Source: an uncultured Actinomycetota bacterium
GTDB lineage: Bacteria > Actinomycetota > Actinomycetes > JAFAQI01
Direction: 5' to 3'
DNA: 64,000 nt
Assembly (NCBI GenBank): GCA_963770565.1
Contig: CAVYQE010000002.1
Location: 656,672 to 720,671 of the forward strand
Below are positions 8,188 to 35,005 of the stretch, piece by piece. Every line of letters begins with the position of its first letter. Position 1 is the stretch's first letter. The translations under genes and the position numbers were made by a program. The notes beneath the pieces are model-generated. The model ran no database searches, was not told the DNA's origin, and saw nothing but the letters and a program-made list of their open reading frames with translations.

Positions 8188-8272
8188 CCAAGCAATGTCA
8201 CATTGCCCCGGGAAACCCGGGGGCAATGTGACACCACCCCCTCAAAGTGCAGGGCAATGTCACATTGCTTGG
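8188..8272. repeat. Family-1 composite palindromic element, copy A
   Basis: CCAAGCAATGTCACATTGCCCCGGGAAACCCGGGGGCAATGTGACACCACCCCCTCAAAGTGCAGGGCAATGTCACATTGCTTGG. Three GCAATGTSACATTGC-like cores; the outer two form a 22-bp terminal inverted repeat. Sits between the convergent 3' ends of ppc and the 8276..9505 gene. Same element at 28291 and 34916. Confidence 0.8.
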
Positions 8273-8275
8273 CTG

Positions 8276-9505
8276 CTAGCAGGCGGGGACGCGGGGCAGG
8301 GCGTCGGGCCGGCGCAGGGTGGCAACGCCATACCGCACCAGCGGGGCCGAGACCTTGTGCCACGAGCTACCGCCGAGGTTTTCGGCGAGCGGCACAAAGG
8401 GGGTCGGGTGCGCCACACCGCACTCACCGTTGCGCGACCACTGACCCACGGCCGCGCCGCCAGCACTCGACACGCTGATCGCGTTCAGCTGCGAGTCATG
8501 GCCCGGCGAGGCCGCGTGCCCGTTTCGCCACTTTCCGCCGCTGTAGACCAGGACGTACGCCGAGCTCACGGTGCCCGTCTTCGCGCTGCTAGTGCCGGCG
8601 AGGTAGGCATGAGAGCCGGATGCCGACAGGGCCGAGGTCTGCGCGTAATAGCCCGGCGAGGCGACCTTGACCCGTGACCACTTCTTGCCGTTCCAGTGCT
8701 CGGTGAACGGCTGGGGGTGCAGGGTCGTCGTGCCCACCGAGATCGATCCGGCCACCCAGGTGTTCTTCGAGGAGGTGGTCGCGATCCGGTTGACCGACGC
8801 GCCGGACGGCAGCGTGAGCTGCATCACCTTGAACTTGTGACCGTTCCAGAACGTGACCACAACGCCCTTGACGTCAGTGCCGAGGATCCACACGTTCTTC
8901 GCGCTCGAGGTGCTGACCGCGCTGTCGTTGAACCCGGTCTGCTTGGTGTCCTTCAGCACAGCCCACTTGTGACCGTTCCAGTGCGCGATCAACGGGGTCG
9001 ACGTTGGCAGCCCGTCACCGACCGCCCAGGCATTCGACGCCGACGAGGCCGACACCGAGAGGAACTGGCCCTGCCCGATCGAGGTCTTCTCCGGCTTGAA
9101 GCCGCCGCCCGTGGAGTGCTCGATCAGGGTCGTGTCCGATGTACCGCCGAAGACGTCGCCGACGATCCAGGCCGAATGCGGCGATCCGGCCGCGACGTCG
9201 AACAGCTGGTCGCTCGTGACAGGGCTCGGCAGCTTCACGGTCACCTTCGACCAGTGCGAGCCGGATCGGCGCAGCGCGTACGGCGTCGACCCCGCGTTGG
9301 TCGACTGCATGCCAAGGGCGAACGCAGTGGTGGAGTGCGGCGCGACCGACACCGCGCTCAGCGATGCGGTCGTTATCTTGGCATTCGAGTGGGCCGCCGG
9401 GTGGCGGGTGGCACCGGACGCCGCGGAGCCGCTAGCGACCGCAGCCACGACGAGGCCTGACGCGATCGAAACGAGGGCAGCCCGACGGGCCAGCGAAGTC
9501 AGCAT
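8276..9505 (-). CDS. Secreted repeat protein (beta-propeller-like)
   Basis: Signal peptide MLTSLARRAALVSIASGLVVAAVASGSAAS. Roughly 45-50 aa periodic repeats with HWNGHKW / FWNGHKF / EHWNGKKW / NAWAVGD / NVWILGTD / NTWVAGS signatures. Family assignment uncertain. Confidence 0.55.
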   Translation of the reverse strand: MLTSLARRAALVSIASGLVVAAVASGSAASGATRHPAAHSNAKITTASLSAVSVAPHSTTAFALGMQSTNAGSTPYALRRSGSHWSKVTVKLPSPVTSDQLFDVAAGSPHSAWIVGDVFGGTSDTTLIEHSTGGGFKPEKTSIGQGQFLSVSASSASNAWAVGDGLPTSTPLIAHWNGHKWAVLKDTKQTGFNDSAVSTSSAKNVWILGTDVKGVVVTFWNGHKFKVMQLTLPSGASVNRIATTSSKNTWVAGSISVGTTTLHPQPFTEHWNGKKWSRVKVASPGYYAQTSALSASGSHAYLAGTSSAKTGTVSSAYVLVYSGGKWRNGHAASPGHDSQLNAISVSSAGGAAVGQWSRNGECGVAHPTPFVPLAENLGGSSWHKVSAPLVRYGVATLRRPDALPRVPAC

Positions 9506-9612
9506 GCGGAGGACCCTAGTGCAACGCTTAGCGGCCCTGCAGGCGATCCGCCAGACCAGCCCGAATCACCACTCCGCACCGACCTCATGCAGCGTGAAAC
9601 GTGCCGCGTGGG

Positions 9613-9635
9613 CCAAGCAATGTCACATTGCTTGG
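9613..9635. repeat. Solo 23-bp perfect palindrome of family 1 (CCAAGCAATGTCACATTGCTTGG)
   Basis: Equals the left and right terminal inverted repeats of the 85-bp family-1 element fused without the internal part. Lies 110 bp upstream of the start of gene 8276..9505 and 21 bp from the island attR-like repeat. Confidence 0.8.
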
Positions 9636-9653
9636 GCGACGGGGTGGGGCGTG

Positions 9654-9712
9654 GCCGAGGCTCCGGGATTTGAACCCGGGATGGGCGCGAACCCAAACCG
9701 CATTAGCAGTGC
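9654..9712 (-). repeat. Duplicated 3' portion of tRNA-Ser(GCU) (attR-like partial tRNA)
   Basis: 9657..9712 is identical over 56 bp to 26632..26687 (59 bp with one mismatch if extended to 9654/26629). The copy covers the anticodon stem through the T-arm and acceptor 3' strand of the tRNA at 26630..26718, in the same orientation. Confidence 0.85.
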
Positions 9713-10528
9713 TCCGTGAAGCTGTCCGTAGGTGGCCGCCGATGACCACCGATGACCGGCCTGGAAAGCGTTGATGCAGGTCAGGGCCTTGCGCCGGCCC
9801 GCGACGCACTTTGGCGGACAATCGCGGACGCCGCAACGTTGTGCGAGAACTGCAACTGAAACTGCAACTGGTGGCAACCGAGACAGTGACCCAGGCGACG
9901 ACGCCGGATGTGCGTCTGACAGCCCTCTCGTGGGTGAGGATCGAACCCATCGAGCAGGCCCAGGCTAAAGAGTGCCCGTGAACCCGCGCGGGCAGGCTCC
10001 TGACCTGCAACTTCACCGCAGAAGGCAGGATTTGAGCGTGGCTTCCTTACCGACCTGAACCGTGGCGAACATTTCCTGGCAGACGCTGATGCCCTGTGCA
10101 TCGAAATCACAATGGAGGTGCGGCGGCTCAGAACGGCACGCCCGCTCGGTGCGCGGTACGTACGCCGGAGGCTGCGGCGGCCAGCCATCGCTGGACGCCG
10201 CGGCGGAGTCCACGAACCCAGAACATGCCCCCGGGCGCTGGTGGGGCGCTCATGCGAGAGACGAGGTCGAGCATCAGAGGCGGCCTTTGTCGAAGCGGTC
10301 GGGGTCCGATGTGCCGGCCGCCTCGCTGACTCAGCGAGGGACCGCGACAGCCCAACAGTGCGAGTCGTTGACCGCGAGGAGCTCGACTCCGAGCAGGCTT
10401 GAACGCCAGACGGCGCTGCTTCCGCTCCCGCTCCGAGGCCGATGCATCCATCAAGTCCAGCAGATGCCGGTCAGATCAGCAACCGGTTGGGACGCCCGCA
10501 GCCGCGTCCTAACCCGCCCGGTCTCGCC

Positions 10529-12736
10529 TTAGTGCGAGAACCGCACCGTCGGCAGCGCGCGGCGTAGCCACCGCGGGCTGTACCAGGCGTTGTGACCTGT
10601 CAGGCGAAGGATCACAGGCAGGATGATCAACCGGATCGACAACGCGTCAAGGAAGACTGCCACCGCCAGGATGACGCCCATCTCCTTGGGTGCGAGCGGG
10701 CCGGACAGCGCGAATGTGAGAAAGACCGCAACCATGACGCCGGCAGCCGCGACGACTACCCGCCCCGAGGTCCGCAACGCGGTGCGCATCGCGTCGTACG
10801 GGTCGCCGGTCGCGTCGTAGTGCTCACGCGCGGCGGACAGCAAGAACAGCGTGTAGTCCATCGCGACGCCCGAGAGCATCGCTCCGAAGAACAGCGGTGC
10901 CCAGGCGTCCACAAACCCCTGCGGCTGGAAGTGAAGCAGCCCGGACAGGTGGCCGTCCTGGAAGATCAGCCGGGCGACACCGAACGCGGCTGCGATCGAG
11001 GCGAGGTTGGTGATCACACCGGCAAACGCGACAAGCGGGCTACCGAGCGCGACGAGCAGTAGCAGGAACCCGAGCAAGATCAGCAGACCGAAAACCAACG
11101 GCGTGCGTGCGCTGAGGACCTTCTGCAGGTCGTGGTTCTCGGCAGCAGCACCGCCGATCAGCGTGCCGGCCGGGAGCTCGGTACGGATCCGGTCGATGGT
11201 CGCTCCGGTCGTCGCGCTGGAAGCGTCTGTGGTTGGGACCGCAAGAAGCATCTCGTACCCGTGACTGGTGCCGCCTGGCATCACAGCAGCGATGCCTCGA
11301 TCGGCGCGAAGCGCACTGGTTGCCTCGCCGACCGACGAGCTCGGCGCCACGATTTGCAGGGTGCCCGGTGCGCCAGGACCGAACGCGCTCACGACCTGTT
11401 CATAGCCGGCGCGTGCCGACTGGTCCGCGGGCACGATCGCGATACTCGGCATCCCGGTGCGCAGGCCCAGCACGGGCCAGGCGAGCATCGCGAGAAGTGC
11501 GACCACAAACGACGCGGCCAGCCAGGGACGGCGGTGCAGCAGACCGCCCCACCGATGGAGCAGATTCTCCAGGCCGCGCGGGAGATGCGGCTCGTGGAAG
11601 TGTCGCCGTTCGAACGCCTTGATCTGCCTTCGCGCCTCGCCGAACGGGAGTGCTCCATTGTTGATCCGCGGGCCGAGTCGGCCGAGCACGGCGGGCAGCA
11701 GCGTCAGCGTCGCGGCAAGTACGGCGACAACGGCGAGCATGATCCCGAGCGCCATACTGCGGAACGCCGGGCTGGGCACGATCAGCACGGTCGACAGCGA
11801 CACGAGGACGGTCAGGCCGCTGAACGCGACCGCCTTGCCAGCGGTTGCCATCGTCTCGCCGACGGCACCAATCGCGTCGTCGCCACCACGGCGGGCCATC
11901 GCGTGACGAAACCGTACGACGATGAACAAGGCGTAGTCGATGCCGAGCGCAAGTGCAAACATCATGGCGAAGTTCAAGGCCCAGATGCTGATCGGTGCCA
12001 CCCTGGTCGCCACTACGAGAGCTCCCGCGGCGCTCAACAGCCCGACGAGGGTCAACATCAGTGGCAGGCCTGCTGCAACGAGGCTGCCGAAGGCAAGCAC
12101 GAGGACGGCCAGCGTGACCGGCCAGGAAAGGATCTCTGAGCGAATCATCGCCGAGTGATTCACCTTGTTGAAGTCCGACCACAACGCGCTGTCACCGGTG
12201 AGCTCCACTGACACCGACGAACTCGACAGCTTCGACAGGGGACCGGTCAGCGCGTCTGCGGCGCGAACCATGTCATTGGCGCCGGCTGCGGCACCGGCTT
12301 GGATCACCCCGGTCCGGCCATCACGTGAGAGGCTTACACCCGCAGTCGGACCGACCACTGTGCTCACTCGAGGGTCGGCGCGCAAGAGTTTCTCGACGCG
12401 GCTCACTGCCGCTTGAGCGGCCGGGTCCGTCGCGATTGGCCGGGTCGAGTCATGAACGACAACCTGCAGTGCAGTGGCGCTCAAACCGGCGAAGTCGCGG
12501 GCGATCACCGCACGAGCCTGGACCGACTGGCTCCCGTTCGCCTGCCACCCGGCTCCCGCTAAGGACGAGTCCACCTTAGGCGCGAACGCGCCGAAGCCAA
12601 CAAGAACGACCAACCAGCCGAGGAGCACGATCCGGAAGTGAGTGGCAGCCCACACGCCCAGCCGGGCCAGCCACGCCGGGCTCGGTGTCGCTGCGGGGCT
12701 CGGCGGGGTCGTCGCGCGCGGGGCGACGGTTGTCAT
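10529..12736 (-). CDS. MMPL-family (RND superfamily) membrane transporter
   Basis: 735 aa. N-terminal TM followed by a large periplasmic loop, twice-repeated six-TM bundles, typical MmpL architecture. Last gene of the cstB-like/cstR-like operon; AAGGAG RBS at 12741-12746. Confidence 0.85.
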   Translation of the reverse strand: MTTVAPRATTPPSPAATPSPAWLARLGVWAATHFRIVLLGWLVVLVGFGAFAPKVDSSLAGAGWQANGSQSVQARAVIARDFAGLSATALQVVVHDSTRPIATDPAAQAAVSRVEKLLRADPRVSTVVGPTAGVSLSRDGRTGVIQAGAAAGANDMVRAADALTGPLSKLSSSSVSVELTGDSALWSDFNKVNHSAMIRSEILSWPVTLAVLVLAFGSLVAAGLPLMLTLVGLLSAAGALVVATRVAPISIWALNFAMMFALALGIDYALFIVVRFRHAMARRGGDDAIGAVGETMATAGKAVAFSGLTVLVSLSTVLIVPSPAFRSMALGIMLAVVAVLAATLTLLPAVLGRLGPRINNGALPFGEARRQIKAFERRHFHEPHLPRGLENLLHRWGGLLHRRPWLAASFVVALLAMLAWPVLGLRTGMPSIAIVPADQSARAGYEQVVSAFGPGAPGTLQIVAPSSSVGEATSALRADRGIAAVMPGGTSHGYEMLLAVPTTDASSATTGATIDRIRTELPAGTLIGGAAAENHDLQKVLSARTPLVFGLLILLGFLLLLVALGSPLVAFAGVITNLASIAAAFGVARLIFQDGHLSGLLHFQPQGFVDAWAPLFFGAMLSGVAMDYTLFLLSAAREHYDATGDPYDAMRTALRTSGRVVVAAAGVMVAVFLTFALSGPLAPKEMGVILAVAVFLDALSIRLIILPVILRLTGHNAWYSPRWLRRALPTVRFSH

Positions 12737-12803
12737 GGTTCTCCTTACATTGCCCGGTAGGGTATCTGTGATCCACTAACGATCAGCTGCGTATTGAGTC
12801 CGA

Positions 12804-13079
12804 TCAGGCCAAGCTGAGAAAGAGCTTCTCCATCTGGTCCGGGCTCAACGGCTCAACCTCACCCGCGGCGGCCGCCGACATGCACTGCCGCATCCCAGAG
12901 GCGAGCAACTTGTAGCCGGCGCGGTCGAACGCCTTGCTCACCGCGGCCATCTGGGTCACGATGTCGGCGCAGTCCCGGCCGTCCTCGAGCATCCGGATCA
13001 CACCGCCGACCTGTCCCTCGATTCGGCGCAGGCGCTTGACGATCTCGTCGGTCGCGCCGTTGTCGAGCTCCATGTGCAT
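12804..13079 (-). CDS. CsoR/CstR/RcnR-family (DUF156) repressor, CstR-like (two Cys, no metal-ligand His)
   Basis: MHMELDNGATDEIVKRLRRIEGQVGGVIRMLEDGRDCADIVTQMAAVSKAFDRAGYKLLASGMRQCMSAAAAGEVE...: conserved RxxGQxxGxxxM, a first Cys in ...DC.DIV.Q..A and a second Cys 29 residues later; no His four residues before the second Cys. GGAAGGA RBS. The upstream part of the track ORF 12804..13367 is not coding. Confidence 0.85.
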   Translation of the reverse strand: MHMELDNGATDEIVKRLRRIEGQVGGVIRMLEDGRDCADIVTQMAAVSKAFDRAGYKLLASGMRQCMSAAAAGEVEPLSPDQMEKLFLSLA

Positions 13080-13107
13080 TTCCTTCCTCAGCGATGTCGA
13101 TCTGACC

Positions 13108-14484
13108 TCACGTCGCGACCAACTGGCACCACGCCGTGTAGCCACCGAGCAGATCCGAGACGTCACGGGCACCGGCGCGCGCAAGGACGCTCGACGCCAC
13201 GATCGAGCGCCAACCAGTCGCGCAGTACACGAGGATAGGTTTGTCGAGGTCGAGTTCCGCGACCCGGCTCGGCAACTCGGCCAGCGGGATCGCGACGGCG
13301 CCGGAGAGCATGCCAGCGGCACGCTCGGTGGGGTTGCGCAGGTCGACAAGTTGAAGCTCGTCGACATTGTCGATGGCGTTCAGCGCCTCGGCGACGGTCA
13401 ACCGGCTCGAACGCGCAGTCTGTGCCGGGTCGGCACCCAGGAGACCGATCGGGTCGGCGACGTAGCCAATGACGTTGTCGTATCCGATCCGGGCGAGCCG
13501 CATCGCGTCACGTTGCTCCGCGCCGGTGGGACTGAGCAAGATCACCCTCGTTTCGGGTGGGAGCACGGACCCCACCGTCTCCGCGAGCCTGCCCTCGCCG
13601 CTCACGTTGACGGATCCGCTGAGATGCCCGGCGGCGTACTCCCCCGGCTCGCGGGTATCGAGCACGACGGCACCGGTCACCCGTTCTGCCTCGACGGTGG
13701 CCAGGTCCAGCGCCGGAACGGTCCGTGCGCCGTCTAGGCGTTCGTGATCCTGCCGGTTGAGCAGGGCGTTGAAGCCGAAATAGCCGGGTGCCGCCGGTTG
13801 GTCGGCGGTGACGATCGCGACGAACTGGTCCTCGGCCATCGGCCGGCATGCGTAGTTGAGAACTCGCTGCTCACCGATGGTCGACTGGCGCTCGGTCGAG
13901 AGGTTCTTGCCGCAGGCTGAGCCCGCACCGTGGGCAGGGAAAACGCGCACGGAATCGGGCAGACCCATGAGCTTGACCTGCACCGACTGGTACAGCCGGC
14001 GGGCGAGCTCGTCGGCGGTCACTCCCACCGAGGCCAGCAAGTCGGGTCTTCCGACATCGCCGATGAACAGCGCGTCGCCGGTGAGGACGCCCCACGGCAC
14101 CTCGTCAACAGCATGTTCGTAGACCAGCACGCTGATTGATTCCGGGGTGTGGCCTGGAGTCGCCATGATCTCGAGCGTCACGTCGCCGAGGTCGATCCGC
14201 TCACCATCGCGAAGGGCGCGGAACGCGAAGTCCGGCGCCGCCTCCTGACCGAAGCCGATCCAGGCACCCGTCGCAGCGGCGAGCTCCAAGTGCCCCGCGA
14301 CGAAGTCGGCGTGGAAATGGGTGTCGATCACCCCGACGATGGTCAGCCCCGCGCTGGCCGCCTCGGCGAGGTAGTCCTCGACGTCCCGACGCGGGTCGAC
14401 GACGACGGCGTGACGAGACGCCTCGTCAGCGATGAGGTACGACGCCTGCGACAGGCACTCGATGTAGTGCTGCGTAAAGATCAC
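13108..14484 (-). CDS. CstB-like persulfide dioxygenase (MBL fold) fused to two rhodanese domains
   Basis: The N-terminus VIFTQHYIECLSQASYLIADE... aligns with the CstB/ETHE1 start. Metal motif THFHADFVAGH. C-terminal rhodanese with active Cys (VYCATGWRS) preceded by an inactive rhodanese-like domain. GTG start at 14484 with GGAGG 5 nt upstream; the alternative is a leaderless ATG at 14505. Confidence 0.85.
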   Translation of the reverse strand: MIFTQHYIECLSQASYLIADEASRHAVVVDPRRDVEDYLAEAASAGLTIVGVIDTHFHADFVAGHLELAAATGAWIGFGQEAAPDFAFRALRDGERIDLGDVTLEIMATPGHTPESISVLVYEHAVDEVPWGVLTGDALFIGDVGRPDLLASVGVTADELARRLYQSVQVKLMGLPDSVRVFPAHGAGSACGKNLSTERQSTIGEQRVLNYACRPMAEDQFVAIVTADQPAAPGYFGFNALLNRQDHERLDGARTVPALDLATVEAERVTGAVVLDTREPGEYAAGHLSGSVNVSGEGRLAETVGSVLPPETRVILLSPTGAEQRDAMRLARIGYDNVIGYVADPIGLLGADPAQTARSSRLTVAEALNAIDNVDELQLVDLRNPTERAAGMLSGAVAIPLAELPSRVAELDLDKPILVYCATGWRSIVASSVLARAGARDVSDLLGGYTAWCQLVAT

Positions 14485-14503
14485 TTCTGCCTCCGCTGCT
14501 ACC

Positions 14504-14520
14504 ATACCCCGTGAGGTATA
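14504..14520. promoter_or_regulatory. CsoR/CstR-type operator op1 (ATACCCCGTGAGGTATA), 20 bp upstream of the cstB-like start
   Basis: TACCC-N4-AGGTA palindrome (right half-site 4/5). Same family as op2-op6. Overlaps the alternative ATG at 14505. Confidence 0.7.
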
Positions 14521-14745
14521 TGTTGTCGACTCGAAGGAGCTTCTTGTGTGCATGCCCACTACGTGCCGTGATTGCGGCAAGACGACCTGGCGCGGCTGTG
14601 GCCAGCACGTCGACGCCGTCATGGCCGGTGTGCAAACGTCCCAACGCTGCACTTGCCCCCGGTCGACCCGCTCATCGCGGTCAGTGCTGACCCGACTGAT
14701 CGGTCGGACCTCCGCGTAGGCGATGGCGGGCCTCGACGGAGTGTG

Positions 14746-15912
14746 CTACTCGAGCTTGAGCAACGCCATCAGCCGTTCGGCAACCTGACCGCCCGCGTCG
14801 ATCGCGACGTCAACCGCATCGCTCACCCGCAGGTCGTCACGCAGCAACGAGCGGACCTCCGCCATTGTCGTGTCAGCGGCCGCGTTGGGGCGGCCGGCGG
14901 CGGACCGCAGCGCCTCGAGACGATCTGCGGCGCGCACCAGGCACGACCGGTCGTACTGCCAACTCTCAGACCACGGGCGGTCAAGCAACATGGTGCGAAT
15001 GACGCCAGCCGAGTGATCCGCGAGCAGGTCGCGCACTAGCACAAGGTTTCCCACGGACTTCGCCATCTTCACGCCGTCGACATTTACCACTCCGACGCGA
15101 AACCATCGGCGCGCGTAGGGTCGCACTCCGGTCAACGCCTCACCGATCGCCGCCTCGAATGCGTGATGGGGGTAGCGCAGGTCGGCACCGCCGGCGTGGA
15201 TGTCGACGCCCAGCCCGAACGTGCTGAGCACCATCGCAGTGCACCCGGCGTGCCAGCCTGGACGGCCCGGACCCCATGGGCTGTCCCATCGCTGGTCGGC
15301 CCCGGTCGAGGCCTGCCACAAAGCAGCGTCCAGCGGCTGCCGCTTCGCCGGGTCGGCCAGGTTGCCGCCGTACTCCGCGGCGAGCGCGAGCGCATCGGCC
15401 TCGGATAGACCTTCGGACTCGGCGATTCCCGTACCGGGCAGGTAGACGCTGCCCTCGCTGACGTAGGCGGCTCCACTCTCAACGAGGGCCGCCGCGAGCG
15501 CCACCACCTGGCTGATGTGGTGACGAGCGCGAGGCTCGTGATGCGGCCGGGAGACCCGCAGCGCTGCCATGTCAGCATCGAAGTGGTACTGCTGCAGGTA
15601 GGCGAAGGTGTCGTTCGGGGTGCCCGCACGGTCGGCCGCAGCGCTGAGCACGTCGTCGATGTCGGTGACGTTCCGGCAGACGATCGGGGTGGTGCGACTG
15701 TCGGCGAGCACGGCCGTGAGGACGTCGACCCAGACGTACGTCGCGGCGTGACCCAGATGCGTGACGTCGTAGGGGGTGATCCCGCAGACGTAGAGGCGCG
15801 CCCGGTCGATCATGGGCAGCGGCGATCCGGCGATCGACATCGGTTCTGGCGGGGCGGCGGTCGGGTAGACGATCTGCACGCCCCCATGATCCTCCGCGCC
15901 GCGGCGGCTCAT
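14746..15912 (-). CDS. MshC-like cysteine ligase (class I aminoacyl-tRNA-synthetase-like, CysRS paralogue lacking an anticodon-binding domain)
   Basis: HIGH-type motif CGITPYDVTHLGHAATYV and KMSKS-type motif KMAKSVGN. 388 aa. Strong local similarity to my recollection of mycobacterial MshC (FGPGRPGWH..., DMAALRV...). Start overlaps the Nudix stop (ATGA coupling). Confidence 0.75.
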   Translation of the reverse strand: MSRRGAEDHGGVQIVYPTAAPPEPMSIAGSPLPMIDRARLYVCGITPYDVTHLGHAATYVWVDVLTAVLADSRTTPIVCRNVTDIDDVLSAAADRAGTPNDTFAYLQQYHFDADMAALRVSRPHHEPRARHHISQVVALAAALVESGAAYVSEGSVYLPGTGIAESEGLSEADALALAAEYGGNLADPAKRQPLDAALWQASTGADQRWDSPWGPGRPGWHAGCTAMVLSTFGLGVDIHAGGADLRYPHHAFEAAIGEALTGVRPYARRWFRVGVVNVDGVKMAKSVGNLVLVRDLLADHSAGVIRTMLLDRPWSESWQYDRSCLVRAADRLEALRSAAGRPNAAADTTMAEVRSLLRDDLRVSDAVDVAIDAGGQVAERLMALLKLE

Positions 15913-16364
15913 CGACCGGTCGACGTACTTGGTACGGCAGTGAGGAGGAACTCGCGCTGCTCATCGTGCATCAGTGGCGGGAGCTCGCGGAACCAGCCGT
16001 AGGCCCGGGCCGCGTCATCCAGCTCGATCGTCCCGGTCCATTCGGTGACCTTGAAAGCGATGCCCACCGGGCTGTCCAGGTTGTTGTTGTAGTGGCTGGG
16101 GTACTCGATGTACCCGAGGAGCTCGGCGCGATCCACCGATATCCCGAGTTCCCCCCTCGCGACCCGGGCGACCGCGTCGGTCAGCGGCTCTCCGAATCGG
16201 ACCGTGCCGCCCGGCAGGTGCCACAAGCCTCGGCAGGGCTCGGCATCGCGTCTGGTGAGGAGAACCCCGCGCTCGGAGACCAGCACGACTTCCACAGTCA
16301 GCCGGGGAACCTTGCGGTAAATCGTCCAGAACTCCCGCTCGGACAGCGGGTGGTCCACGTCCAT
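15909..16364 (-). CDS. NUDIX hydrolase
   Basis: Nudix box GLWHLPGGTVRFGEPLTDAVARVARGELG. About 151 aa from the ATG at 16364; the longer track ORF would place the operator inside the coding sequence. First gene of a two-gene operon with the MshC-like ligase. Confidence 0.7.
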   Translation of the reverse strand: MDVDHPLSEREFWTIYRKVPRLTVEVVLVSERGVLLTRRDAEPCRGLWHLPGGTVRFGEPLTDAVARVARGELGISVDRAELLGYIEYPSHYNNNLDSPVGIAFKVTEWTGTIELDDAARAYGWFRELPPLMHDEQREFLLTAVPSTSTGR

Positions 16365-16415
16365 CTCATCAGTCAACGCTCGTTCGCCCCTCGCGTAATA
16401 GGGTCTTAGGTCTCT

Positions 16416-16431
16416 ATACCCACAGGGGTAT
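16416..16431. promoter_or_regulatory. CsoR/CstR-type operator op2 (ATACCCACAGGGGTAT) in the divergent nudix / sqr intergenic region
   Basis: Perfect TACCC-N4-GGGTA palindrome. 52 bp upstream of Nudix ATG 16364 and 74 bp upstream of SQR ATG 16505. Confidence 0.8.
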
Positions 16432-16504
16432 CCCTGGTAGACCGGGGGCATCGTGAGGAAAGCCTGCCCGTTGGACGGTTGGCTCGTCCGCCAAGGAGCA
16501 CCTG

Positions 16505-17965
16505 ATGGCTCGTGTCGTTGTCCTCGGCGCTGGGATCTCCGGCCACACCGCCGCACTCCACCTTCGCCGGCTCCTCGCTCGGCGCCACGAGGTCGTCGTC
16601 GTCTCACCGAATGCCGACTACAACTGGATCCCTTCAAACATCTGGGTCGGCGTCGGACGGATGGATGTTGACCAGGTCACCTTCCCGCTTGCGCCCGTGT
16701 ACCGGAGAAAAGGTATCGACTTTCGGCAAGCCCGGGCGGTCGAGCTCTGGCCAGAAGGCGACGACTCGAACGCCCAAGGTGCGGTCGAGATCGAGTACAC
16801 CCTTCCCCATCGGTCCGGCGAGCATGAACGACTCGCCTACGACTTCCTGATCAACGCGACCGGCCCCAAGCTGAACTTTGCGGCGACGCCGGGCCTCGGC
16901 CCGGAAGGAGGACACTCCCTGTCCGTTTGTACGGCACAGCATGCATCGGCCACCGCGGCCAAGTTCGCCGAGGTCATCGCGGCGCTTGAACGCGGCGAGA
17001 CCCGGCGCCTCGTGATCGGGGTAGGCCACGGCACGTGCACGTGCGAGGGCGCCGCTTTCGAGTACGCCTTCAACGTCGAGCACGAGCTACGGTCCCGCGG
17101 CCTCCGCGAGCGCGCCGAGGTGACCTACCTCACCAACGAGCACGAACTCGGTGACTTCGGCGTCGGCGGCATGACGTTCGCGCAGCACGGCTTTCTCACG
17201 ACCAGTCAACTGTGGACGGAGTCGCTGTTCATGGAGCGCGACGTCAAGGCGGTCGTCGGCGCACATGTGCAGCGGGTCGAGCCGGGCAAGTTGTTCTACG
17301 AAACCCTCGACGGCGAGGAGGGCGCGCTGGAGTTCGACTTCGCGATGCTGCTGCCGCCCTTCCGCGGCCAGGATCTCAAGGCGTACGACCACAGGGGCGC
17401 CGACATCACGAGCGAGATGTTTGCCCCGAACGGTTTCCTGAAAGTCGACGCTGACTACAGCCCAAAGCCGTACAACGAGTGGAAGGCGGCAGACTGGCCG
17501 AGGACGTACGTGACTCCGAAGTACCCGAACGTGTTCGGTGTGGGGATCGCATTTGCCCCACCGCACCCGATTTCGAAGCCACGAACCTCACCCGGCGGCA
17601 CCGTGATCTCGCCGGCTCCGCCCCGCACCGGAATGCCGTCAGGGCTGATGGGACGTCAGGTGGCACGCAGCATCGCGGACATGATCAACACCGGCGCGAC
17701 GACGCCCACCCACACTGCGTCGATGGCGGACATGGGTGCGGCCTGTGTGGCATCGGCCGGCGCTGGCTTTCGCAAGGGCACGGCGGCCTCCATGACGATG
17801 TACCCAGTCGTCCCGGACACCGACCGGTTCCCCGGCTACGGCCGCAGCCTCACCGATACGACCGGCGAGCTCGGACTAGCCGGGCACTGGATCAAGCACA
17901 TGCTGCACGTGATGTTCATCTACAAGGCCAAGGGCCGTCCAGGCTGGTCCCTGATCCCGGAGTGA
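16505..17965 (+). CDS. sqr: Sulfide:quinone oxidoreductase (FAD-dependent pyridine nucleotide-disulfide oxidoreductase family)
   Basis: N-terminal Rossmann VVVLGAGISGHTAA; conserved SQR Cys region GTCTCEGAAFEYA; 486 aa. AAGGAG RBS. Confidence 0.85.
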   Translation: MARVVVLGAGISGHTAALHLRRLLARRHEVVVVSPNADYNWIPSNIWVGVGRMDVDQVTFPLAPVYRRKGIDFRQARAVELWPEGDDSNAQGAVEIEYTLPHRSGEHERLAYDFLINATGPKLNFAATPGLGPEGGHSLSVCTAQHASATAAKFAEVIAALERGETRRLVIGVGHGTCTCEGAAFEYAFNVEHELRSRGLRERAEVTYLTNEHELGDFGVGGMTFAQHGFLTTSQLWTESLFMERDVKAVVGAHVQRVEPGKLFYETLDGEEGALEFDFAMLLPPFRGQDLKAYDHRGADITSEMFAPNGFLKVDADYSPKPYNEWKAADWPRTYVTPKYPNVFGVGIAFAPPHPISKPRTSPGGTVISPAPPRTGMPSGLMGRQVARSIADMINTGATTPTHTASMADMGAACVASAGAGFRKGTAASMTMYPVVPDTDRFPGYGRSLTDTTGELGLAGHWIKHMLHVMFIYKAKGRPGWSLIPE

Positions 17966-17973
17966 GGAGCCCG

Positions 17974-18192
17974 ATGACCGAGAACAATGCCGCGGCCTCG
18001 TCCGCGCAGCCCACAGCGGGCGGGTCCGCGACGGATCACGTGCGCGCGGTCGGCGAGGTCGCTGACTCCCTGGCGCCGATGCCGACCAGACGGACGATTC
18101 GGATCCGAACGTTCCTGCCCTATCAGGCGTACCGCTTCGGTGTCATCAACCTCAAGATGCTCAAGGTGACCCGTCGCTCCCAGTCAAGGTGA
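17974..18192 (+). CDS. Small hypothetical protein translationally coupled to sqr
   Basis: 72 aa. GAGGAG lies 5 nt upstream of the ATG at 17974, 8 nt after the sqr stop. No recognisable domain. Confidence 0.4.
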   Translation: MTENNAAASSAQPTAGGSATDHVRAVGEVADSLAPMPTRRTIRIRTFLPYQAYRFGVINLKMLKVTRRSQSR

Positions 18193-18270
18193 GCCTGGCG
18201 ACCCCGGGTCTCGACCTAATGTTCGGACATTTCCTTGACCCGAGCGAGTAAATGTCCGTACATTGAGTGA

Positions 18271-19104
18271 ATGAGGCAGGAGTCACACCCACCGGGCCTG
18301 GCCCGAATCGACCGAACCGGGTCGGTGTCGCTGTGGGCGCAGGTCCGCGCTGATCTGGAGCGACGGCTCGCGGTCGATGAGTTCGACGGTGACTTCCCCG
18401 GCGAACTGGAGCTGACCGCGCAATACGCGGTCAGCCGGCACACCATTCGGGAGGCGTTGCGTCACCTGCGCGCGGAAGGCCTCGTCATCAGTGAGCGCGG
18501 ACGCCGCTCTCGCCTCGCCGACCACGCTGAAATCGAGCAACCGCTCGGCGCGCTCTACAGCCTGTTCGCCTCGGTCGAGGCCGCCGGTCTGGAGCAGCGC
18601 AGCGTCGTCCGCGCCCTTGATCTCCGCGCCGACGGAGTCATCGCGCCGCGACTCGACGTCGAGGAGTCCACCCCACTGCTCTATCTGGAACGGCTCCGTC
18701 TGGCCGGCGAGAAGCCGTTCGCGATGGACCGCGTCTGGCTCCCCGCGTCAGTCGCCGAACCGCTGCTCGACGCGGACTTCACCCACACTGCCCTGTACGA
18801 CGAACTCGCCGCGCGCTGCGGATTCCGCCTGACCGGCGGCCGGGAACACATCCGCGCGGTCCTTCCGACCACGGCCGAACGCAGACTGCTCGAACTCGAC
18901 GACACCACCGCACTGTTCGCGATCGAACGCCTTGGTGAACGGGCCGGCCAGCCAATGGAGTGGCGCCACACCCTGGTCCGTGGCGACCGATTCGCCCTCA
19001 CTGCCGACTTCACCGCCCACACCGGCTACCGGCTCGAGCTGTCCGGCCCCGAACGACAGGCTTCCAACCTCGCGACCGCATCGCAAGGACACGCCCATGG
19101 CTGA
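18271..19104 (+). CDS. GntR-family regulator with UTRA effector domain (HutC/FarR subfamily)
   Basis: N-terminal GntR HTH (...ELELTAQYAVSRHTIREALRHLRAEGLVISERGRRSRLA), C-terminal UTRA-like domain. 277 aa. Embedded in the sqr-rhodanese-tauE gene string. Confidence 0.8.
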   Translation: MRQESHPPGLARIDRTGSVSLWAQVRADLERRLAVDEFDGDFPGELELTAQYAVSRHTIREALRHLRAEGLVISERGRRSRLADHAEIEQPLGALYSLFASVEAAGLEQRSVVRALDLRADGVIAPRLDVEESTPLLYLERLRLAGEKPFAMDRVWLPASVAEPLLDADFTHTALYDELAARCGFRLTGGREHIRAVLPTTAERRLLELDDTTALFAIERLGERAGQPMEWRHTLVRGDRFALTADFTAHTGYRLELSGPERQASNLATASQGHAHG

Positions 19105-19450
19105 CCCCTTCGATCCGCAGACTCGGGTCGACGAAGTCAGCCCGGCCGCAGCGCGGGACCTCGCCGATGCCGGTGCCGTGCTCGTCGATGTCCGTGAGCC
19201 GGACGAATGGGCCGCGGGCCACATCGCCGACGCACAGCACATCCCGCTCGGCGACCTCGACCCTGACCTGTTCGTCGGCGGCCCGCTCGTAGTCGCTGTG
19301 TGCCGCTCGGGGCACCGCTCCGGCACCGCGGCGCTGCGATTGCACGACGCGGGAGTCGACGTCCGCAACATGACGGGCGGAATGAAGGCCTGGCAGGCCG
19401 ACGGCCTGCCCGTCACCCGCGACGACGGCACCACCGGCTCAGTCGCGTGA
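19097..19450 (+). CDS. Single-domain rhodanese sulfurtransferase
   Basis: 117 aa with active-site loop CRSGHRS. Overlaps the gntR stop by 8 nt and the tauE start by 4 nt. Confidence 0.8.
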   Translation: MADPFDPQTRVDEVSPAAARDLADAGAVLVDVREPDEWAAGHIADAQHIPLGDLDPDLFVGGPLVVAVCRSGHRSGTAALRLHDAGVDVRNMTGGMKAWQADGLPVTRDDGTTGSVA

Positions 19451-20370
19451 CGCTCGCCTTGGCACTTCTCCTCGGTGCCGTCATCGGGCTCAGCCTGGGG
19501 GCCCTTGGTGGTGGCGGTTCGATCCTCACCGTCCCGGCGCTCGTGTATGCGCTCGGCGAGAAGGCGTCGGCAGCCACGACCGGCAGCCTGATCATTGTCG
19601 GGATCACCGCGCTCGTTGGTTCCTTCGGCCACGCACGAGCGGGCCGGGTGCGCTGGCGCGCCGGGTTCGGTTTCGGTCTCGCCGGGGTCGCCTCGAGCTC
19701 CCTCGGGACAGCGCTCAACCGTCATATCAACCCGGATGTGCTGCTGCTCGCCTTCGCCGGCCTGGTGGTGATCGCAGCGTCAGGTATGTGGCGTCATGCC
19801 GGGGCTGCCATCGCGGTATCTGGTGATCAGCTCGAGCTTCGCGTCGCCGAGCCTGCTTTGGCGGTGGACGGCTCAAACGCTTCGAGGAGCGCAGCGGTCG
19901 AACTACCCGGCGACCGAGGCATCCGTCCCACACCGGCCAGCCAGCCGGAGGGATCGATCGACTTCCCCGGTGGCTCAACCACCCACGATTCCCTGAGAAC
20001 CGTCCTCAAGGTGGTCGCCGCCGGTCTTATCGTCGGCTTTCTCACCGGGTTCTTCGGTGTTGGCGGCGGCTTCGTCATCGTGCCCGCCCTGGCCCTCGTA
20101 CTCGCCTACCCGATGCCTGAGGCGATCGGAACGTCCCTGCTGATCATCGCCATCAACTCAGCAGCCGCCCTCGGCGAACGAGCCGGCCAACATCAGACAG
20201 TTCATTGGCACGTGATCGCGCCGTTTACGGTCGCGGCTGTTGCCGCCAGCCTCGCCGGCAAGCAGGTCGCCGACCGAGTCGACGGACCAAGGCTGACGCG
20301 CGCCTTCGTCATTCTTCTGATCGCGGTCGCGATCTACACCGCGGTCCGCAGCATCGTCGGCCTCAGCTGA
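19447..20370 (+). CDS. TauE/SafE (DUF81) sulfite/sulfur-compound exporter family membrane protein
   Basis: Duplicated 4-TM halves, each with a glycine-rich motif: LGALGGGGSILTVPAL and FFGVGGGFVIVPAL. GTG start overlapping the rhodanese stop. Confidence 0.8.
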   Translation: MTLALALLLGAVIGLSLGALGGGGSILTVPALVYALGEKASAATTGSLIIVGITALVGSFGHARAGRVRWRAGFGFGLAGVASSSLGTALNRHINPDVLLLAFAGLVVIAASGMWRHAGAAIAVSGDQLELRVAEPALAVDGSNASRSAAVELPGDRGIRPTPASQPEGSIDFPGGSTTHDSLRTVLKVVAAGLIVGFLTGFFGVGGGFVIVPALALVLAYPMPEAIGTSLLIIAINSAAALGERAGQHQTVHWHVIAPFTVAAVAASLAGKQVADRVDGPRLTRAFVILLIAVAIYTAVRSIVGLS

Positions 20371-20495
20371 GCAGACGGGAGACACCTGCTGTCACACGAC
20401 ACGACGGGCAAGGGTGGAGACTTCAACTGGGCACTAGCGGGGACTTCCAACTGGCCATAGTTGGGAATAGACGCCGGGCGAGTGCCGTTGAATCC

Positions 20496-20513
20496 TATAC
20501 CCCTAGGGGTATA
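20496..20513. promoter_or_regulatory. CsoR/CstR-type operator op3 (TATACCCCTAGGGGTATA)
   Basis: Perfect 18-bp palindrome of the form TACCC-N4-GGGTA. 17 bp upstream of the GGAGGAG RBS and ATG 20530 of the DUF2892-like gene. Confidence 0.85.
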
Positions 20514-20529
20514 CTGGAGGAGAAACGCC

Positions 20530-20739
20530 ATGGAACTCGTACGCTTTATGCAGACTTCGATAGGAAGAAGCCTTCGGGCCGTGCTCGGGGTGGTCCTGAT
20601 CGCCGTCGGTGTCGTCCTTGGTGGTGCCTGGCTAGCGCTGGCTGGTATCGGTCTCGTTCCCCTTATCGTCGGATCGGCGGGTCTTTGCCTCATCGCCCCT
20701 CTACTCCACGCTCCGATCCGTGGAGCTCAGAGATCATGA
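20530..20739 (+). CDS. Small two-TM membrane protein, DUF2892/YgaP-C-terminal-like
   Basis: 69 aa: MELVRFMQTSIGRSLRAVLGVVLIAVGVVLGGAWLALAGIGLVPLIVGSAGLCLIAPLL; two hydrophobic helices and a Cys near the second. Strong RBS. This family commonly partners rhodaneses. Confidence 0.45.
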   Translation: MELVRFMQTSIGRSLRAVLGVVLIAVGVVLGGAWLALAGIGLVPLIVGSAGLCLIAPLLHAPIRGAQRS

Positions 20740-20794
20740 GTGAGGCGCGCTCCGATTTCGGCAACTCACACATGACAGTTGACGGGACACGAGC

Positions 20795-21400
20795 GTGACC
20801 ACGCTGGACCGGCAAGGGTGGGATGAGCGGTACCGGGACACCGAGCTGGTGTGGGGCTCTGGCCCCAACCGATTTCTCGTGGACCATGTGACGAACCTGA
20901 CGCCAGGGACTGCGCTGGACGTGGCGTGCGGTGAGGGTCGCAACGCCATCTGGCTTGCGCATCAGGGATGGCGGGTGGTCGGGGTCGACTTCTCGTCCGT
21001 TGGTCTTGACAAGGCGCGAGGGCTGGCAGCGGAGACTGGTGTCACGGCGGAGTGGGTGCAGGGTGACCTCACCACATGGGAGCCACCGAAAAGCTATGAC
21101 CTCGTCGTTGTCATGTACCTGCATTTGCCAGGCGCTGTGCGTCACAGTGTCTTTGCGCGGATGGCAAAGTCGGTGGCACCGGGCGGGACCATGCTCGTGG
21201 TAGGTCATGACATGTTGAACCTCACCGAGGGAACCGGCGGTCCACAGAATGCTGCCGTTCTCTACGGGCCTGAGGACGTTGTCGGCGATATCGGCTCGGT
21301 ACTTGCGATCGAGAGAGCGGAGCGTGTTCACCGGCCGGTCTCCGGTTCGGAGGGCGAGGCGATGGCCATCGACGTCCTGGTTCGCGCTCACCGATCCTGA
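20795..21400 (+). CDS. Class I SAM-dependent methyltransferase (TehB/thiopurine-methyltransferase-like)
   Basis: Motif I LDVACGEGRNAIWLA, motif post-I VVGVDFS. 201 aa. Downstream of op3 in the same orientation. Confidence 0.8.
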   Translation: MTTLDRQGWDERYRDTELVWGSGPNRFLVDHVTNLTPGTALDVACGEGRNAIWLAHQGWRVVGVDFSSVGLDKARGLAAETGVTAEWVQGDLTTWEPPKSYDLVVVMYLHLPGAVRHSVFARMAKSVAPGGTMLVVGHDMLNLTEGTGGPQNAAVLYGPEDVVGDIGSVLAIERAERVHRPVSGSEGEAMAIDVLVRAHRS

Positions 21401-21413
21401 ACCTTTACAGGCC

Positions 21414-22127
21414 TTAGGCGGTGGCAGATGGCGCACGGAGCCACCGCAACCATTCGGTGTCGCCCATTAGGTCCAGCCGGCGCCAGAGCACGGGGTTATC
21501 CGTAGCCTGGCTTGCGTGGAGGGCGATGGCGCGATGCTGAATAGAACGGTCGACATGAAGCACGATGTCGACCTCGTCCTCGCTGCAGCCGGCAAAGCAG
21601 GTGCCGAAGGCGGCGTTGAGGGAATCGGCCACCGAGTCCGGGATCGACCAAGCAATCACAGGCAGATCAAGTAACTCGGCCGCACGCAAGGCTGCTTCTG
21701 TCGCCCGTTGATGGTCGCGGTGTCCCGTGATCCCACCGAGATCGAAGACAAGTAGCCCATGAGCACCAACCGCGTTGACATATCCAACGACATCGTCGAC
21801 CAGGATGTCGAGTTCGATGGAGTCGAGACTTCCATCAGCGTGGTCCAGCAGCCGCACATCGCTGACCGTGAGTGCATCGGCGGCGGCGGCAAGCTCGGCG
21901 ACCCGGACGACACGAAGGTCACCTGACGTCCCGTGCAGGGCTGACGCCTCGCCGTGAGTGAAACTGAGCACGGCGGTCGATGTGCCGGCGGCCGTCAAAC
22001 TAGCGATGACAGCGCCCAAGCCGAAGGACTCGTCGTCGGGGTGGGCGCACACAGCAACTACGGACGGCAGCCCCACAGCATCCAGCGTCATATCGCAATC
22101 TGACGCGCTGGGACGCCGCGCGGTCAT
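21414..22127 (-). CDS. LmbE/PIG-L-family N-acetylglucosaminyl deacetylase (MshB/Mca-like)
   Basis: Signature AHPDDE (VCAHPDDESF) and HxDH (GHRDHQ). 237 aa. Start overlaps the thioredoxin stop (ATGA), so co-transcribed with trx. Confidence 0.8.
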   Translation of the reverse strand: MTARRPSASDCDMTLDAVGLPSVVAVCAHPDDESFGLGAVIASLTAAGTSTAVLSFTHGEASALHGTSGDLRVVRVAELAAAADALTVSDVRLLDHADGSLDSIELDILVDDVVGYVNAVGAHGLLVFDLGGITGHRDHQRATEAALRAAELLDLPVIAWSIPDSVADSLNAAFGTCFAGCSEDEVDIVLHVDRSIQHRAIALHASQATDNPVLWRRLDLMGDTEWLRWLRAPSATA

Positions 22128-22492
22128 GACACGACGTTGGACTTGGCGACGAGGCGGTGGATCTCGTCCATGTCGAGGTCACGCACCTTCCCAATGAGCT
22201 CGTCCAGTGCAGCAGCCGGCAGTGCTCCGGGCTCCCTGTAGACGATCACCTCGTCGCGCAAGATCATGAGGGTCGGGATCGACATGATGCCGAACCCAGA
22301 GGCCATCTCTTGCTCGCCCTCAATGTCCACTTTGGCGAACAAGAGATCCGAGTGAGTTTCAGAGGCCTTCTCGAACACGGGGGCGAATGCCCTGCAGGGT
22401 CCGCACCACGACGCCCAGAAGTCCACCAGCACGATCTCATTGCTGGTCACCACCGTGTCGAAATCCCCTTTGGTAACAGTCACCGTGGCCAC
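22124..22492 (-). CDS. trxA: Thioredoxin
   Basis: WCGPC active site (WASWCGPCRAF). 122 aa. GTG start with GGGAAGGG RBS. op4 lies 18 bp upstream. Confidence 0.9.
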   Translation of the reverse strand: MATVTVTKGDFDTVVTSNEIVLVDFWASWCGPCRAFAPVFEKASETHSDLLFAKVDIEGEQEMASGFGIMSIPTLMILRDEVIVYREPGALPAAALDELIGKVRDLDMDEIHRLVAKSNVVS

Positions 22493-22509
22493 TGGCGCCC
22501 TTCCCTGGG

Positions 22510-22525
22510 TACCCCCTGGGGTATA
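22510..22525. promoter_or_regulatory. CsoR/CstR-type operator op4 (TACCCCCTGGGGTATA) upstream of trx-lmbE
   Basis: TACCC-N4-GGGTA palindrome 18 bp upstream of the trx GTG. Confidence 0.8.
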
Positions 22526-22575
22526 GTCTACAAGGACGGCCCGCCTGGTGTCATTCCCCCTCGCACCACAATGAG

Positions 22576-22588
22576 ATACCCGGGGTAT
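22576..22588. promoter_or_regulatory. Weak/atypical operator-like palindrome op5 (ATACCCGGGGTAT)
   Basis: Half-sites present but the spacer is 1 instead of 4. Lies 51 bp from op4 in the same intergenic region. Could be an auxiliary site or coincidence. Confidence 0.25.
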
Positions 22589-22648
22589 GACCGGGGTGGG
22601 GTCGCGTTGGACCGGTCGCTCGGTGGCGCTGATGGCGTCGTCTTGCTG

Positions 22649-23278
22649 CTATTGCGACGGACTAGCCGGATTCGCGGCCACGCCGAGGGTGAACCAGCTC
22701 CACGGTTTCGGTCCGTTGGCGTAGCGCCGCTCGATCCGCTCGATCACAAAGCCGGCATCGCCGACGAGAGCCGGAGCATCACGTGTGAGGTGGCAACCAT
22801 CTCCCAGTCGGCGCTGCCACGGGTCGAGACGGTATTGCCACCGGGCCACCGAGGCGTCGGGAGAGAGTCCGTGTTCGAGGAAATGGAAGCGGCCTCCCGG
22901 CCGGAGCACCCGGCGGAGTTCGGACAGAACCTTGGTGGGGTCGGCGACGGTGCAGAGCGTGAACGTAGAGAGCGCTGCGTCGCAGCTGGCGTCGTCAAGG
23001 GGGATCGCCTGGCCGTCGAGACCGATGTGCTCGACGGGTGTCCTGCCGGCCATGACCCGCTTCGTAGCCAATCTTCGTGCGAGCGCGGCCGGTTCGACTG
23101 CTAACACCTTCTCCACTTCTGGTGGATAGTGCTCGACGTTGAGACCGGAACCGAATCCGATCTCGACGACCCGGCCAGCGAGTCCCTCCGTCACCTCGGC
23201 GCGCCAGCCTCGCAGAGCGCCCGTGCTACATGCCCGGTCTACCAGGCGGGGAAGGACCTGCTCGCGGTAGAAGCTCAC
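22649..23278 (-). CDS. Class I SAM-dependent methyltransferase (UbiE/Methyltransf_11-like)
   Basis: Motif I VVEIGFGSGLN, motif II/III region PGGRFHFLEH. The first ~240 codons of the track ORF 22649..23998 are Arg/His/Pro-rich wrong-frame sequence. No ATG; GTG start assumed at 23278. Confidence 0.65.
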   Translation of the reverse strand: MSFYREQVLPRLVDRACSTGALRGWRAEVTEGLAGRVVEIGFGSGLNVEHYPPEVEKVLAVEPAALARRLATKRVMAGRTPVEHIGLDGQAIPLDDASCDAALSTFTLCTVADPTKVLSELRRVLRPGGRFHFLEHGLSPDASVARWQYRLDPWQRRLGDGCHLTRDAPALVGDAGFVIERIERRYANGPKPWSWFTLGVAANPASPSQ

Positions 23279-23397
23279 GGTCGCGACGCTACCGGTGCCG
23301 CCGGAGGACAACACCGCTGTGAGTGTCCGTGATCGAGGCGGGCGTCGTTTGGAGACTCCCTTGCGGTTGGCGTAGCGCGGATCTGCGCAACAAACCG

Positions 23398-24084: not shown

Positions 24085-24185
24085 CGTCGGGACAAGGGCA
24101 GGCGTCTCAATACTGGTCACGGTGCGGCTTCCTCTGTTCAAATCGTCGGTGGCCCCGCAAAAGGGGGATCTACTATGACCAACCA

Positions 24186-24202
24186 ATACCCATGGGGGTA
24201 TA
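24186..24202. promoter_or_regulatory. CsoR/CstR-type operator op6 (ATACCCATGGGGGTATA) upstream of the peroxiredoxin
   Basis: TACCC-N4-GGGTA palindrome about 100 bp upstream of prx ATG 24084. Confidence 0.7.
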
Positions 24203-25800: not shown

Positions 25801-25806
25801 GAGGGG

Positions 25807-35000: not shown

Positions 35001-35005
35001 CAGGG

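Follow-up and report, generated by a model that had tools for sequence, protein, structure and literature searches.

The window, the stretch of 64,000 nt that was analysed as a whole, contains a perfect palindrome of 23 bp that stands alone beside an interrupted tRNA-Ser(GCT) (hereafter the solo). In our best reading, the solo would be a singlet of a REP/REPIN-like family of hairpin-forming extragenic repeats (family 1) from an uncultured Frankiaceae lineage. The sequence comparisons suggest that it is probably a deletion remnant of an older family-1 element, similar to a REP singlet, in the old trailer of tRNA-Ser(GCT). The replicated form of the family would be an 85-bp nested palindrome with three cores at a 31-bp period. 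Slippage or recombination between the cores would remove whole periods, from 85 to 54 and then to 23 bp, and the 23-bp end product would keep both outer tails around one core, as found at 9613-9635. The positions of the features are given in Table 1.

Table 1. Positions of the solo, the full family-1 copies and the neighbouring features in the window.
Feature	Position	Strand	Remark
Family-1 copy A, full, 85 bp	8188..8272	.	between PEP carboxylase stop (8145) and stop of gene 8276-9505
409-aa gene	8276..9505	-	signal-peptide-like N-terminus, HWNGxKW repeats; bracketed by copy A and the solo, not mobile with them
Solo 23-bp palindrome	9613..9635	.	single family-1 core with both outer tails
tRNA-Ser(GCT) 3' remnant with encoded CCA	9652..9712	-	one arm of the island direct repeat; aligned to the relative's intact tRNA
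Island, 16.9-kb insertion in tRNA-Ser(GCT)	9713..26628	.	absent from the relative's collinear contig L063
tRNA-Ser(GCT), intact	26629..26718	-	other arm of the direct repeat
Family-1 copy B, full	28291..28375	.	adjoins stop of AMP-binding enzyme gene (28372-30078, minus strand)
Family-1 copy C, full	34916..35000	.	between ptsI-like gene stop (35006) and alpha/beta-hydrolase gene start

The palindrome and its repeat family

The solo reads CCAAGCAATGTCACATTGCTTGG in the window. It is a perfect 11+1+11 palindrome, whose reverse complement differs at the central base only, and is composed of one family-1 core (GCAATGTCACATTGC) and both outer tails, CCAA and TTGG. A hairpin with a 10-bp stem and a 3-nt loop is predicted for it (–12.6 kcal/mol as RNA and –9.3 as DNA). 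In the 64 kb, only one perfect palindrome is longer than the solo: CCCCACCGATGGGCCATCGGTGGGG at 59916-59940 has 25 bp with 12-nt arms and is unrelated to family 1. With up to three mismatches, the solo pattern also matched both ends of copy A and one end of copy C, and 0.00 matches were expected from 100 shuffles. The 15-nt core GCAATGTSACATTGC was found at 7 sites in the window against 0.08 expected, both strands being counted. The sequence-only reading had derived the perfect 23-bp palindrome from family-1 termini. The matches to the ends of the 85-bp elements bear this out, and the solo belongs to family 1.

The three full copies of the window (85 bp each) were recovered by a repeat search. 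They form long hairpins on both strands with fold z-scores of –5 to –9. An alignment of 28 full copies was free of gaps, and in all of them the cores begin at columns 5, 36, and 67, which establishes three palindromic cores exactly 31 bp apart. In copy A they start at 8192, 8223 (a degenerate core, GCAATGTGACACCAC), and 8254. The centre of the core, ATGTSACAT, is invariant across the three cores, whereas the two 16-nt spacers vary from copy to copy. In the RNAalifold consensus, core 1 and spacer 1 pair with core 2, and the changes in the spacers are compensatory, for example CCCCGCAC/GTGGGGG, CCCCGGG/CCCGGGG, CCTGG/CCAGG, and GCGTGTGGC/GCCACGC. The outer tails CCAA and TTGG are part of 22-nt terminal inverted ends (CCAAGCAATGTSACATTGCCCC) that pair with each other, and the whole element is an imperfect palindrome centred on core 2. 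Because it is nearly palindromic, some copies cannot be oriented, and an analysis of orientation bias was therefore dropped.

The cores of the full element act as direct and inverted repeats together, and the direct repeats 62 bp apart are identical at 14 of 15 positions. Therefore, slippage or recombination between the cores could drop whole 31-bp periods. The solo consists of tail, one core, and tail, and corresponds to the full element without 62 bp, a length of exactly two periods of 31 bp. It had previously been described as the left terminal repeat joined to the right one with an interior of about 40 bp missing. The outer termini are indeed joined around one core, but only the outer 11 nt of each remain rather than the whole 22-nt repeats, and the missing interior amounts to 62 bp. 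A second repeat family also occurs in the window, at 42932-43002 and 45815-45885. Its two copies of 71 nt are 77% identical and have 17-nt inverted ends (CGAGTTGATCATGGCGA...TCGCCATGATCAACTCG), and one of them lies about 35 nt from tRNA-Ser(TGA) at 45691-45780.

A genome collection of 596 Gb was scanned with the exact 19-mer CCAAGCAATGTSACATTGC, and 53 stretches were obtained. Uncultured Frankiaceae or "Mycobacteriales" MAGs account for 46 of them, more than 30 of which come from one MAG (CAYNDD01). The other seven are from unrelated taxa, and about nine chance matches are expected in 596 Gb by an arithmetic estimate. Single-core sites number about 5-6 against 26 full copies in one MAG, counts that are biased because the loci were gathered by an exact 19-mer. 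Perfect solos with both tails recur in L009 and L030 (both CAYNDD01) and in L021 (DATAVE01), and near-solos were found in L022 and L050. A 54-nt form with one period missing is present in L053, and in L016 one spacer has been copied onto the other. Other MAGs contain this palindromic unit in doublets of 75 nt, in clusters of several units, and in a 52-nt tandem array. The solo had also been proposed as a minimal ancestral unit; structurally it is such a minimal unit, as the doublets and arrays indicate, but ancestry at the solo site is not shown by them.

The tandem array belongs to a Frankiales MAG (L013, JAICXJ01), where a variant unit (TAGCAATGCCACATTGC plus flank) is repeated four-fold with a length of 52 nt at 1360-1579. 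A five-unit cluster follows at 2271-2405, and array and cluster flank a TetR-like ORF. Some of the L013 units have GTAG or CTAG at their start, and in one case the unit overlaps a stop codon. The array was also considered as CRISPR-like. This was rejected because the "spacers" are repeated too, which makes it a plain tandem duplication.

By crude gene calls, family-1 elements mostly lie directly 3' of stop codons (16 between convergent, 21 between tandem, and 4 between divergent genes). No target-site duplication was recognised at 28 full copies and 4 solos: the duplication length was 0 in 22 of the 32, the longest flanking duplication, of 3 nt, was seen a single time, and the result stayed the same when the element boundary was moved by as much as 4 nt. 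Motif scans of the window and all loci (about 430 kb) found no HUH/Y1-transposase or RAYT signature. The ORFs between nearby units encode an esterase, a methyltransferase, and TetR-like and DUF-like proteins, with no transposases among them. The covariance models of Rfam 15 gave only tRNAs above the gathering threshold, and the best sub-threshold match was a plant miRNA model (E = 0.28). A plasmid collection contained no family-1 match. One isolated 19-mer on a viral contig (L066) lies in an AT-rich context and was judged to be a chance match. A literature search for the core sequence returned only an unrelated primer match, and no paper on such repeats in Frankia or Actinobacteria was found.

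Orthologous sites and the origin of the solo

The end of the solo lies 16 nt from the encoded CCA of the tRNA-Ser remnant (9652-9654) and 18 nt from a 59-nt direct repeat, in which 9654-9712 corresponds to 26629-26687 with 98% identity. The closeness of the solo to the island had been noticed from the sequence and given as 21 bp from the junction. The proximity holds, with the distances just given, and island-specific DNA begins at 9713. On contig L063 of a relative, the intact tRNA-Ser(GCT) lies directly beside the 409-aa gene with nothing between. Since this contig is collinear with the window, has an intact tRNA, and lacks the island, 9713-26628 is an insertion. The tRNA-Ser, the solo, and the 409-aa gene share a strand, and before the insertion the solo stood 16 nt past the CCA of the tRNA. 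A family-1 element may thus once have occupied the tRNA-Ser(GCT) trailer at this place, upstream of the 409-aa gene, and would have collapsed to one unit. Later, or independently, the island would have moved the intact tRNA-Ser(GCT) 17 kb away.

The island encodes an MMPL protein, a rhodanese/metallo-beta-lactamase protein, a class-I Cys-type ligase (CysS/MshC-like), NUDIX and GntR/UTRA proteins, a TauE sulfite exporter, a PIG-L deacetylase (MshB-like), a methyltransferase, and a PAP2 protein. No integrase was present among its ORFs of at least 200 aa. The intact tRNA-Ser(GCT) no longer encodes CCA, which the remnant does.

The closest relative with a comparable spacer is represented by L040 and L063-65, which are one species and differ from the window by 24% at 4-fold sites. 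Copies A and B are kept there as full 85-bp elements, each identical at 82 of 85 positions (copy B at 1860-1944 of L063), whereas the solo is absent. At its site, L040 and L063 read CCAAGCA followed directly by GCGGCGG. This is a clean 16-bp indel, in which 7 of the 23 nt are kept and 16 bp are missing, and the solo is therefore not conserved. The 7 nt that the relative has kept speak for a partial deletion there of an element present in the ancestor. The chance of CCAAGCA at a given position is about 1e-4 by an arithmetic estimate, and 7 background copies of the 7-mer exist in the 64 kb.

Other features of the same site count against the deletion reading. The indel begins exactly at the element boundary and is without flanking microhomology, so an insertion explains it equally well. 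The solo is perfect at 23 of 23 positions in a spacer that is only about 60% identical to that of the relative; a recent origin fits this as well as maintenance does. Therefore, the solo may instead be a lineage-specific gain, a possible but doubtful origin. A single unit would have been inserted beside a pre-existing CCAAGCA/TGCTTGG, or a template switch primed by microhomology would have copied it there from another family-1 element, and the relative would represent the empty site. This fits an indel of exactly 16 bp that abuts a common 7-mer and whose other edge is the element boundary, as well as a perfect consensus copy within a fast-diverging spacer. Family-1 sites are also gained or lost between MAGs: a unit cluster in L019 faces an empty orthologous site in L022, and the related genomes of L070 and L071 have no element in 14-21 kb. 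However, we know of no mechanism by which 16 nt of a repeat could be added with homology at just one side. Motif scans of the window and the loci found no transposase, and 7 nt of the element in the "empty" site are unexpected from an ordinary insertion. Besides, copies A and B are nearly unchanged over the same divergence, so that a perfect copy need not be young.

The loss of a single period was caught at the site of copy A. A 2000-nt sequence (L072, ENA ERZ27245407) is 90% identical to the window, and its copy A measures 54 bp, with a clean 31-nt gap. Since both the window and the more distant L063 have 85 bp, the loss of one period in L072 is derived, and it took place at an orthologous site. 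In L072 a divergently oriented gene takes the place of everything upstream of about –45, counted from the ATG of the 409-aa gene. For this reason L072 says nothing about the ancestry of the solo, and the replacement would make the tRNA-Ser side of the locus a rearrangement hot spot. In L072 the 409-aa gene is split into two ORFs of 273 and 131 aa.

No element of 85 or 54 bp was found at the solo site in the relatives compared. Likewise, when all loci were compared with one another, no orthologous sites paired a solo with a full element. The precursor is therefore a putative one. A comparison of full and solo forms at orthologous loci had been suggested as a check; it gave no longer form at the solo site, but it did give a 54-bp against an 85-bp form at the copy-A site. 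The deletion between cores is the most economical origin in view of the contraction from 85 to 54 bp, the second 54-nt form, the recurrent perfect 23-mers, and the nearly identical direct repeats 62 bp apart in a hairpin-prone structure. Among the three options first offered for the solo (excision footprint, ancestral unit, and operator), a footprint of the deletion type is the best supported, by the loss of 31-bp periods in L072 and L053 and by the fact that 85 minus twice 31 gives 23. It does not look like a transposase footprint, but rather like host recombination between cores. We infer a longer copy as the source of this solo, which today would form a modest hairpin and nothing more.

Conservation, function and mobility

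Conservation of the family-1 copies appears strong but very uneven. Copies A and B differ from the relative at 3 of 85 positions against 24% at 4-fold sites. In their copy-specific spacers, 1 of 64 positions differs from the sister species against about 15 expected (binomial P about 5e-7, an arithmetic estimate). On the other hand, copy C differs from L067 at 11 of 85 positions against 18-22% at 4-fold sites, which is near neutral. The distance of L067 to the window is similar to or closer than that of the sister species, yet copy C is less conserved than copies A and B. The right end of copy C (34994-35010, against about 570-580 in L067) carries a 7-nt indel, CTTGGTC, between CTTG direct repeats, apparently a small slippage event at the element terminus.

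Three-core elements occupy the copy-C site in L067 (489-573), L068 (2903-2987), and L069 (about 2899-2981) as well. In the four lineages, three ATGTSACAT motifs stand at exactly 31-nt spacing. The arms differ by lineage yet compensate each other (GCA/TGC, GCG/CGC, and CGT/ACG; GCGATGTSACATCGC in L068 and CGTATGTGACATACG in L069). At the copy-C loci examined, ATGTSACAT was not found outside the elements. This pattern may reflect concerted evolution of the family within each genome, or else the same site may have received insertions repeatedly.

The compensating arms at fixed spacing, together with the conservation of copies A and B even in the spacers peculiar to each copy, are the reason to keep one further explanation in consideration. 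The ATGTSACAT hairpin modules could be maintained by the host and recognised by a protein, for instance a transposase that has been domesticated or a factor that binds hairpins, and the solo would then be the smallest working unit. We regard this as improbable, since copy C is near neutral, the solo is not conserved, and some related genomes are without the family.

That the solo acts as a functional hairpin is likewise rather unlikely. It would either serve the tRNA-Ser trailer as a terminator or a processing signal, or insulate the 409-aa gene from transcription that reaches it from upstream and today would come from the island. Its place after the tRNA CCA on the strand shared by tRNA and gene, the stable predicted 10-bp stem, the preference of the family for sites just 3' of stop codons, and the conservation of the orthologous copies A and B far above that of 4-fold sites would suit such a role. 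However, the transcribed strand reads CCCACGCGG after the stem and lacks the T/U run that follows the G+C-rich stem-loop of an intrinsic terminator, and a terminator scan of 8000-10000 was empty at the solo and at copy A. A promoter and terminator scan around the solo also returned nothing. The fold of the 77-nt trailer is no better than that of shuffles (z = –1.2). Furthermore, the palindrome is absent from the relative in which tRNA-Ser and gene are intact, and from L072.

The 409-aa gene is flanked by family-1 sequence on both sides, as had been pointed out from the sequence: copy A lies 3 nt past its stop codon and faces the PEP carboxylase stop, and the solo is found 107 nt upstream of its start codon, ATG. 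The latter position of a perfect palindrome would fit an operator on which a dimeric transcription factor regulates the gene, and the ATGT-N-ACAT centre presumably resembles the half-sites of some winged-helix regulators. Nevertheless, an operator is very unlikely. The palindrome is missing in both relatives, by the 16-bp indel in the closest one and also in L072, whereas a promoter-proximal block of about 60 nt upstream of the gene is conserved, and the solo lies outside it. This sequence is found mostly at the 3' ends of genes and where two genes converge, and the solo is a family terminus rather than a unique site. The earlier proposal of a single operator thus finds no support.

Copy A and the solo might also delimit a composite mobile unit with the 409-aa gene as its cargo. 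For this, family-1 sequence on both sides can be cited, and also the fact that the gene is a sharply bounded block of divergence, with an identity to the sister species of 0.63-0.77 (about 0.69) against about 0.90 in the flanking PEP carboxylase gene and tRNA. This explanation is extremely unlikely. The gene and the PEP carboxylase gene remain a pair in L060 and L061/62, whose proteins are 57-63% identical to those of the window; 18-30 nt separate the two stop codons there, and family-1 sequence is absent. At the tRNA-Ser side of the gene, the L060 spacer, which would be an outgroup for the 16-bp indel, cannot be aligned with the window. Moreover, copy A persists without the solo in L040/L063, target-site duplications are absent, and the promoter block inside the supposed unit is conserved while the gene body is not. 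The proposal that 8188..9635 behaves as a presence/absence unit is refuted by the element-free gene pair and by the relative that keeps copy A alone.

The 409-aa gene itself differs from the sister species by 0.53 at 4-fold sites against 0.24 in its neighbours, and its identity to L072 is about 0.92 throughout. The alleles of window, sister species, and outgroup are about 70-72% identical pairwise, which is not clock-like. The pattern of divergence suggests allelic replacement or very fast evolution. A metagenome scan with the 409-aa protein returned only paralogs of 27-29% identity.

Comparison with known repeat systems

In the definition of Di Nocera et al. (2013, PMC3733652), REP sequences are extragenic palindromic units of 20-40 bp that occur in high copy number and carry a conserved GTAG or CGTC tetranucleotide tag at one of their ends. 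The family-1 unit has 23 bp and is spread over the 46 Frankiaceae/Mycobacteriales stretches, mostly beside stop codons. However, the solo and the 28 full copies end with CCAA/TTGG, neither GTAG nor CGTC occurs in columns 1-4 and 82-85, and GTAG is only sporadic in variant units of another MAG (L019). In REPINs, inverted units and their spacer form one hairpin, and this is the predominant form, as the full element is here; the third, internal core of family 1 is extra. In a REPIN-RAYT system the repeats also flank a cognate single-copy RAYT gene, which encodes an HUH/Y1 transposase. REP singlets can arise by deletion between the two REPs of a REPIN, which leaves one palindrome (Bertels & Rainey 2011, PMC3116915).

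Family 1 shares with the REP singlets and REPINs of Pseudomonas and Enterobacteria, which are mobilised by RAYTs, short extragenic palindromic units and a replicated form in which an inverted pair or cluster makes one long hairpin. The lack of target-site duplication, the persistence at orthologous sites, the tandem arrays that include flanks (L013), and a minority of singlets, which are read as remnants (PMC3116915), are also common to both. On the other hand, the family-1 unit is perfectly palindromic around an AT-rich centre, ATGTSACAT, and has no GTAG/CGTC tag, three units rather than two stand at a strict 31-bp period, and the host is an actinobacterium. A further difference is that motif scans recognised no RAYT or Y1-transposase gene in the 430 kb or so of sequence that they covered.

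The BIMEs of E. coli are mosaics of palindromic units in alternating orientation with linkers of fixed length, and they lie in intergenic regions at 3' ends, as family 1 does. The sequences are unrelated, and the linkers of family 1 are copy-specific and self-complementary instead of being taken from a small set of conserved motifs. To our knowledge, family 1 has no protein partner such as IHF or gyrase, in which it also differs from BIMEs. MITEs with long terminal inverted repeats, such as the Correia elements of Neisseria, resemble family 1 in a size of about 85 bp, 22-nt terminal inverted repeats, many copies, and an intergenic hairpin, and like them family 1 could be co-transcribed with neighbouring genes. 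In contrast to MITEs, which derive from DDE insertion sequences and whose copies are each flanked by a target-site duplication, it has no such duplication and no known parent insertion sequence, and internal copies of the terminal motif are atypical of MITEs.

In the "nearly precise excision" of Tn10 and Tn5, a recA-independent deletion between short direct repeats inside the inverted repeats leaves a small palindromic remnant. By the mechanism proposed for the solo, likewise, direct repeats within an inverted structure that forms a hairpin would recombine and leave a short palindrome of the two outer ends. The scale is 85 bp here against 9 kb for Tn10/Tn5, and the evidence for the process is comparative here.

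With the comparisons above, a candidate regulatory site and a candidate mobile cassette are removed from this locus, and the palindrome would be the predictable collapse product of a tandem-phased hairpin repeat. The solo in itself matters little. Family 1 is filed under extragenic hairpin repeats with singlet remnants, a known kind, and not as a member of any named family. It is apparently an undescribed actinobacterial example of REP/REPIN-like repeats, without the GTAG tag or a visible RAYT. The family may be of modest interest for the study of such repeats, for its strict three-core architecture with a 31-bp period and for the unit loss from 85 to 54 bp caught at an orthologous site.
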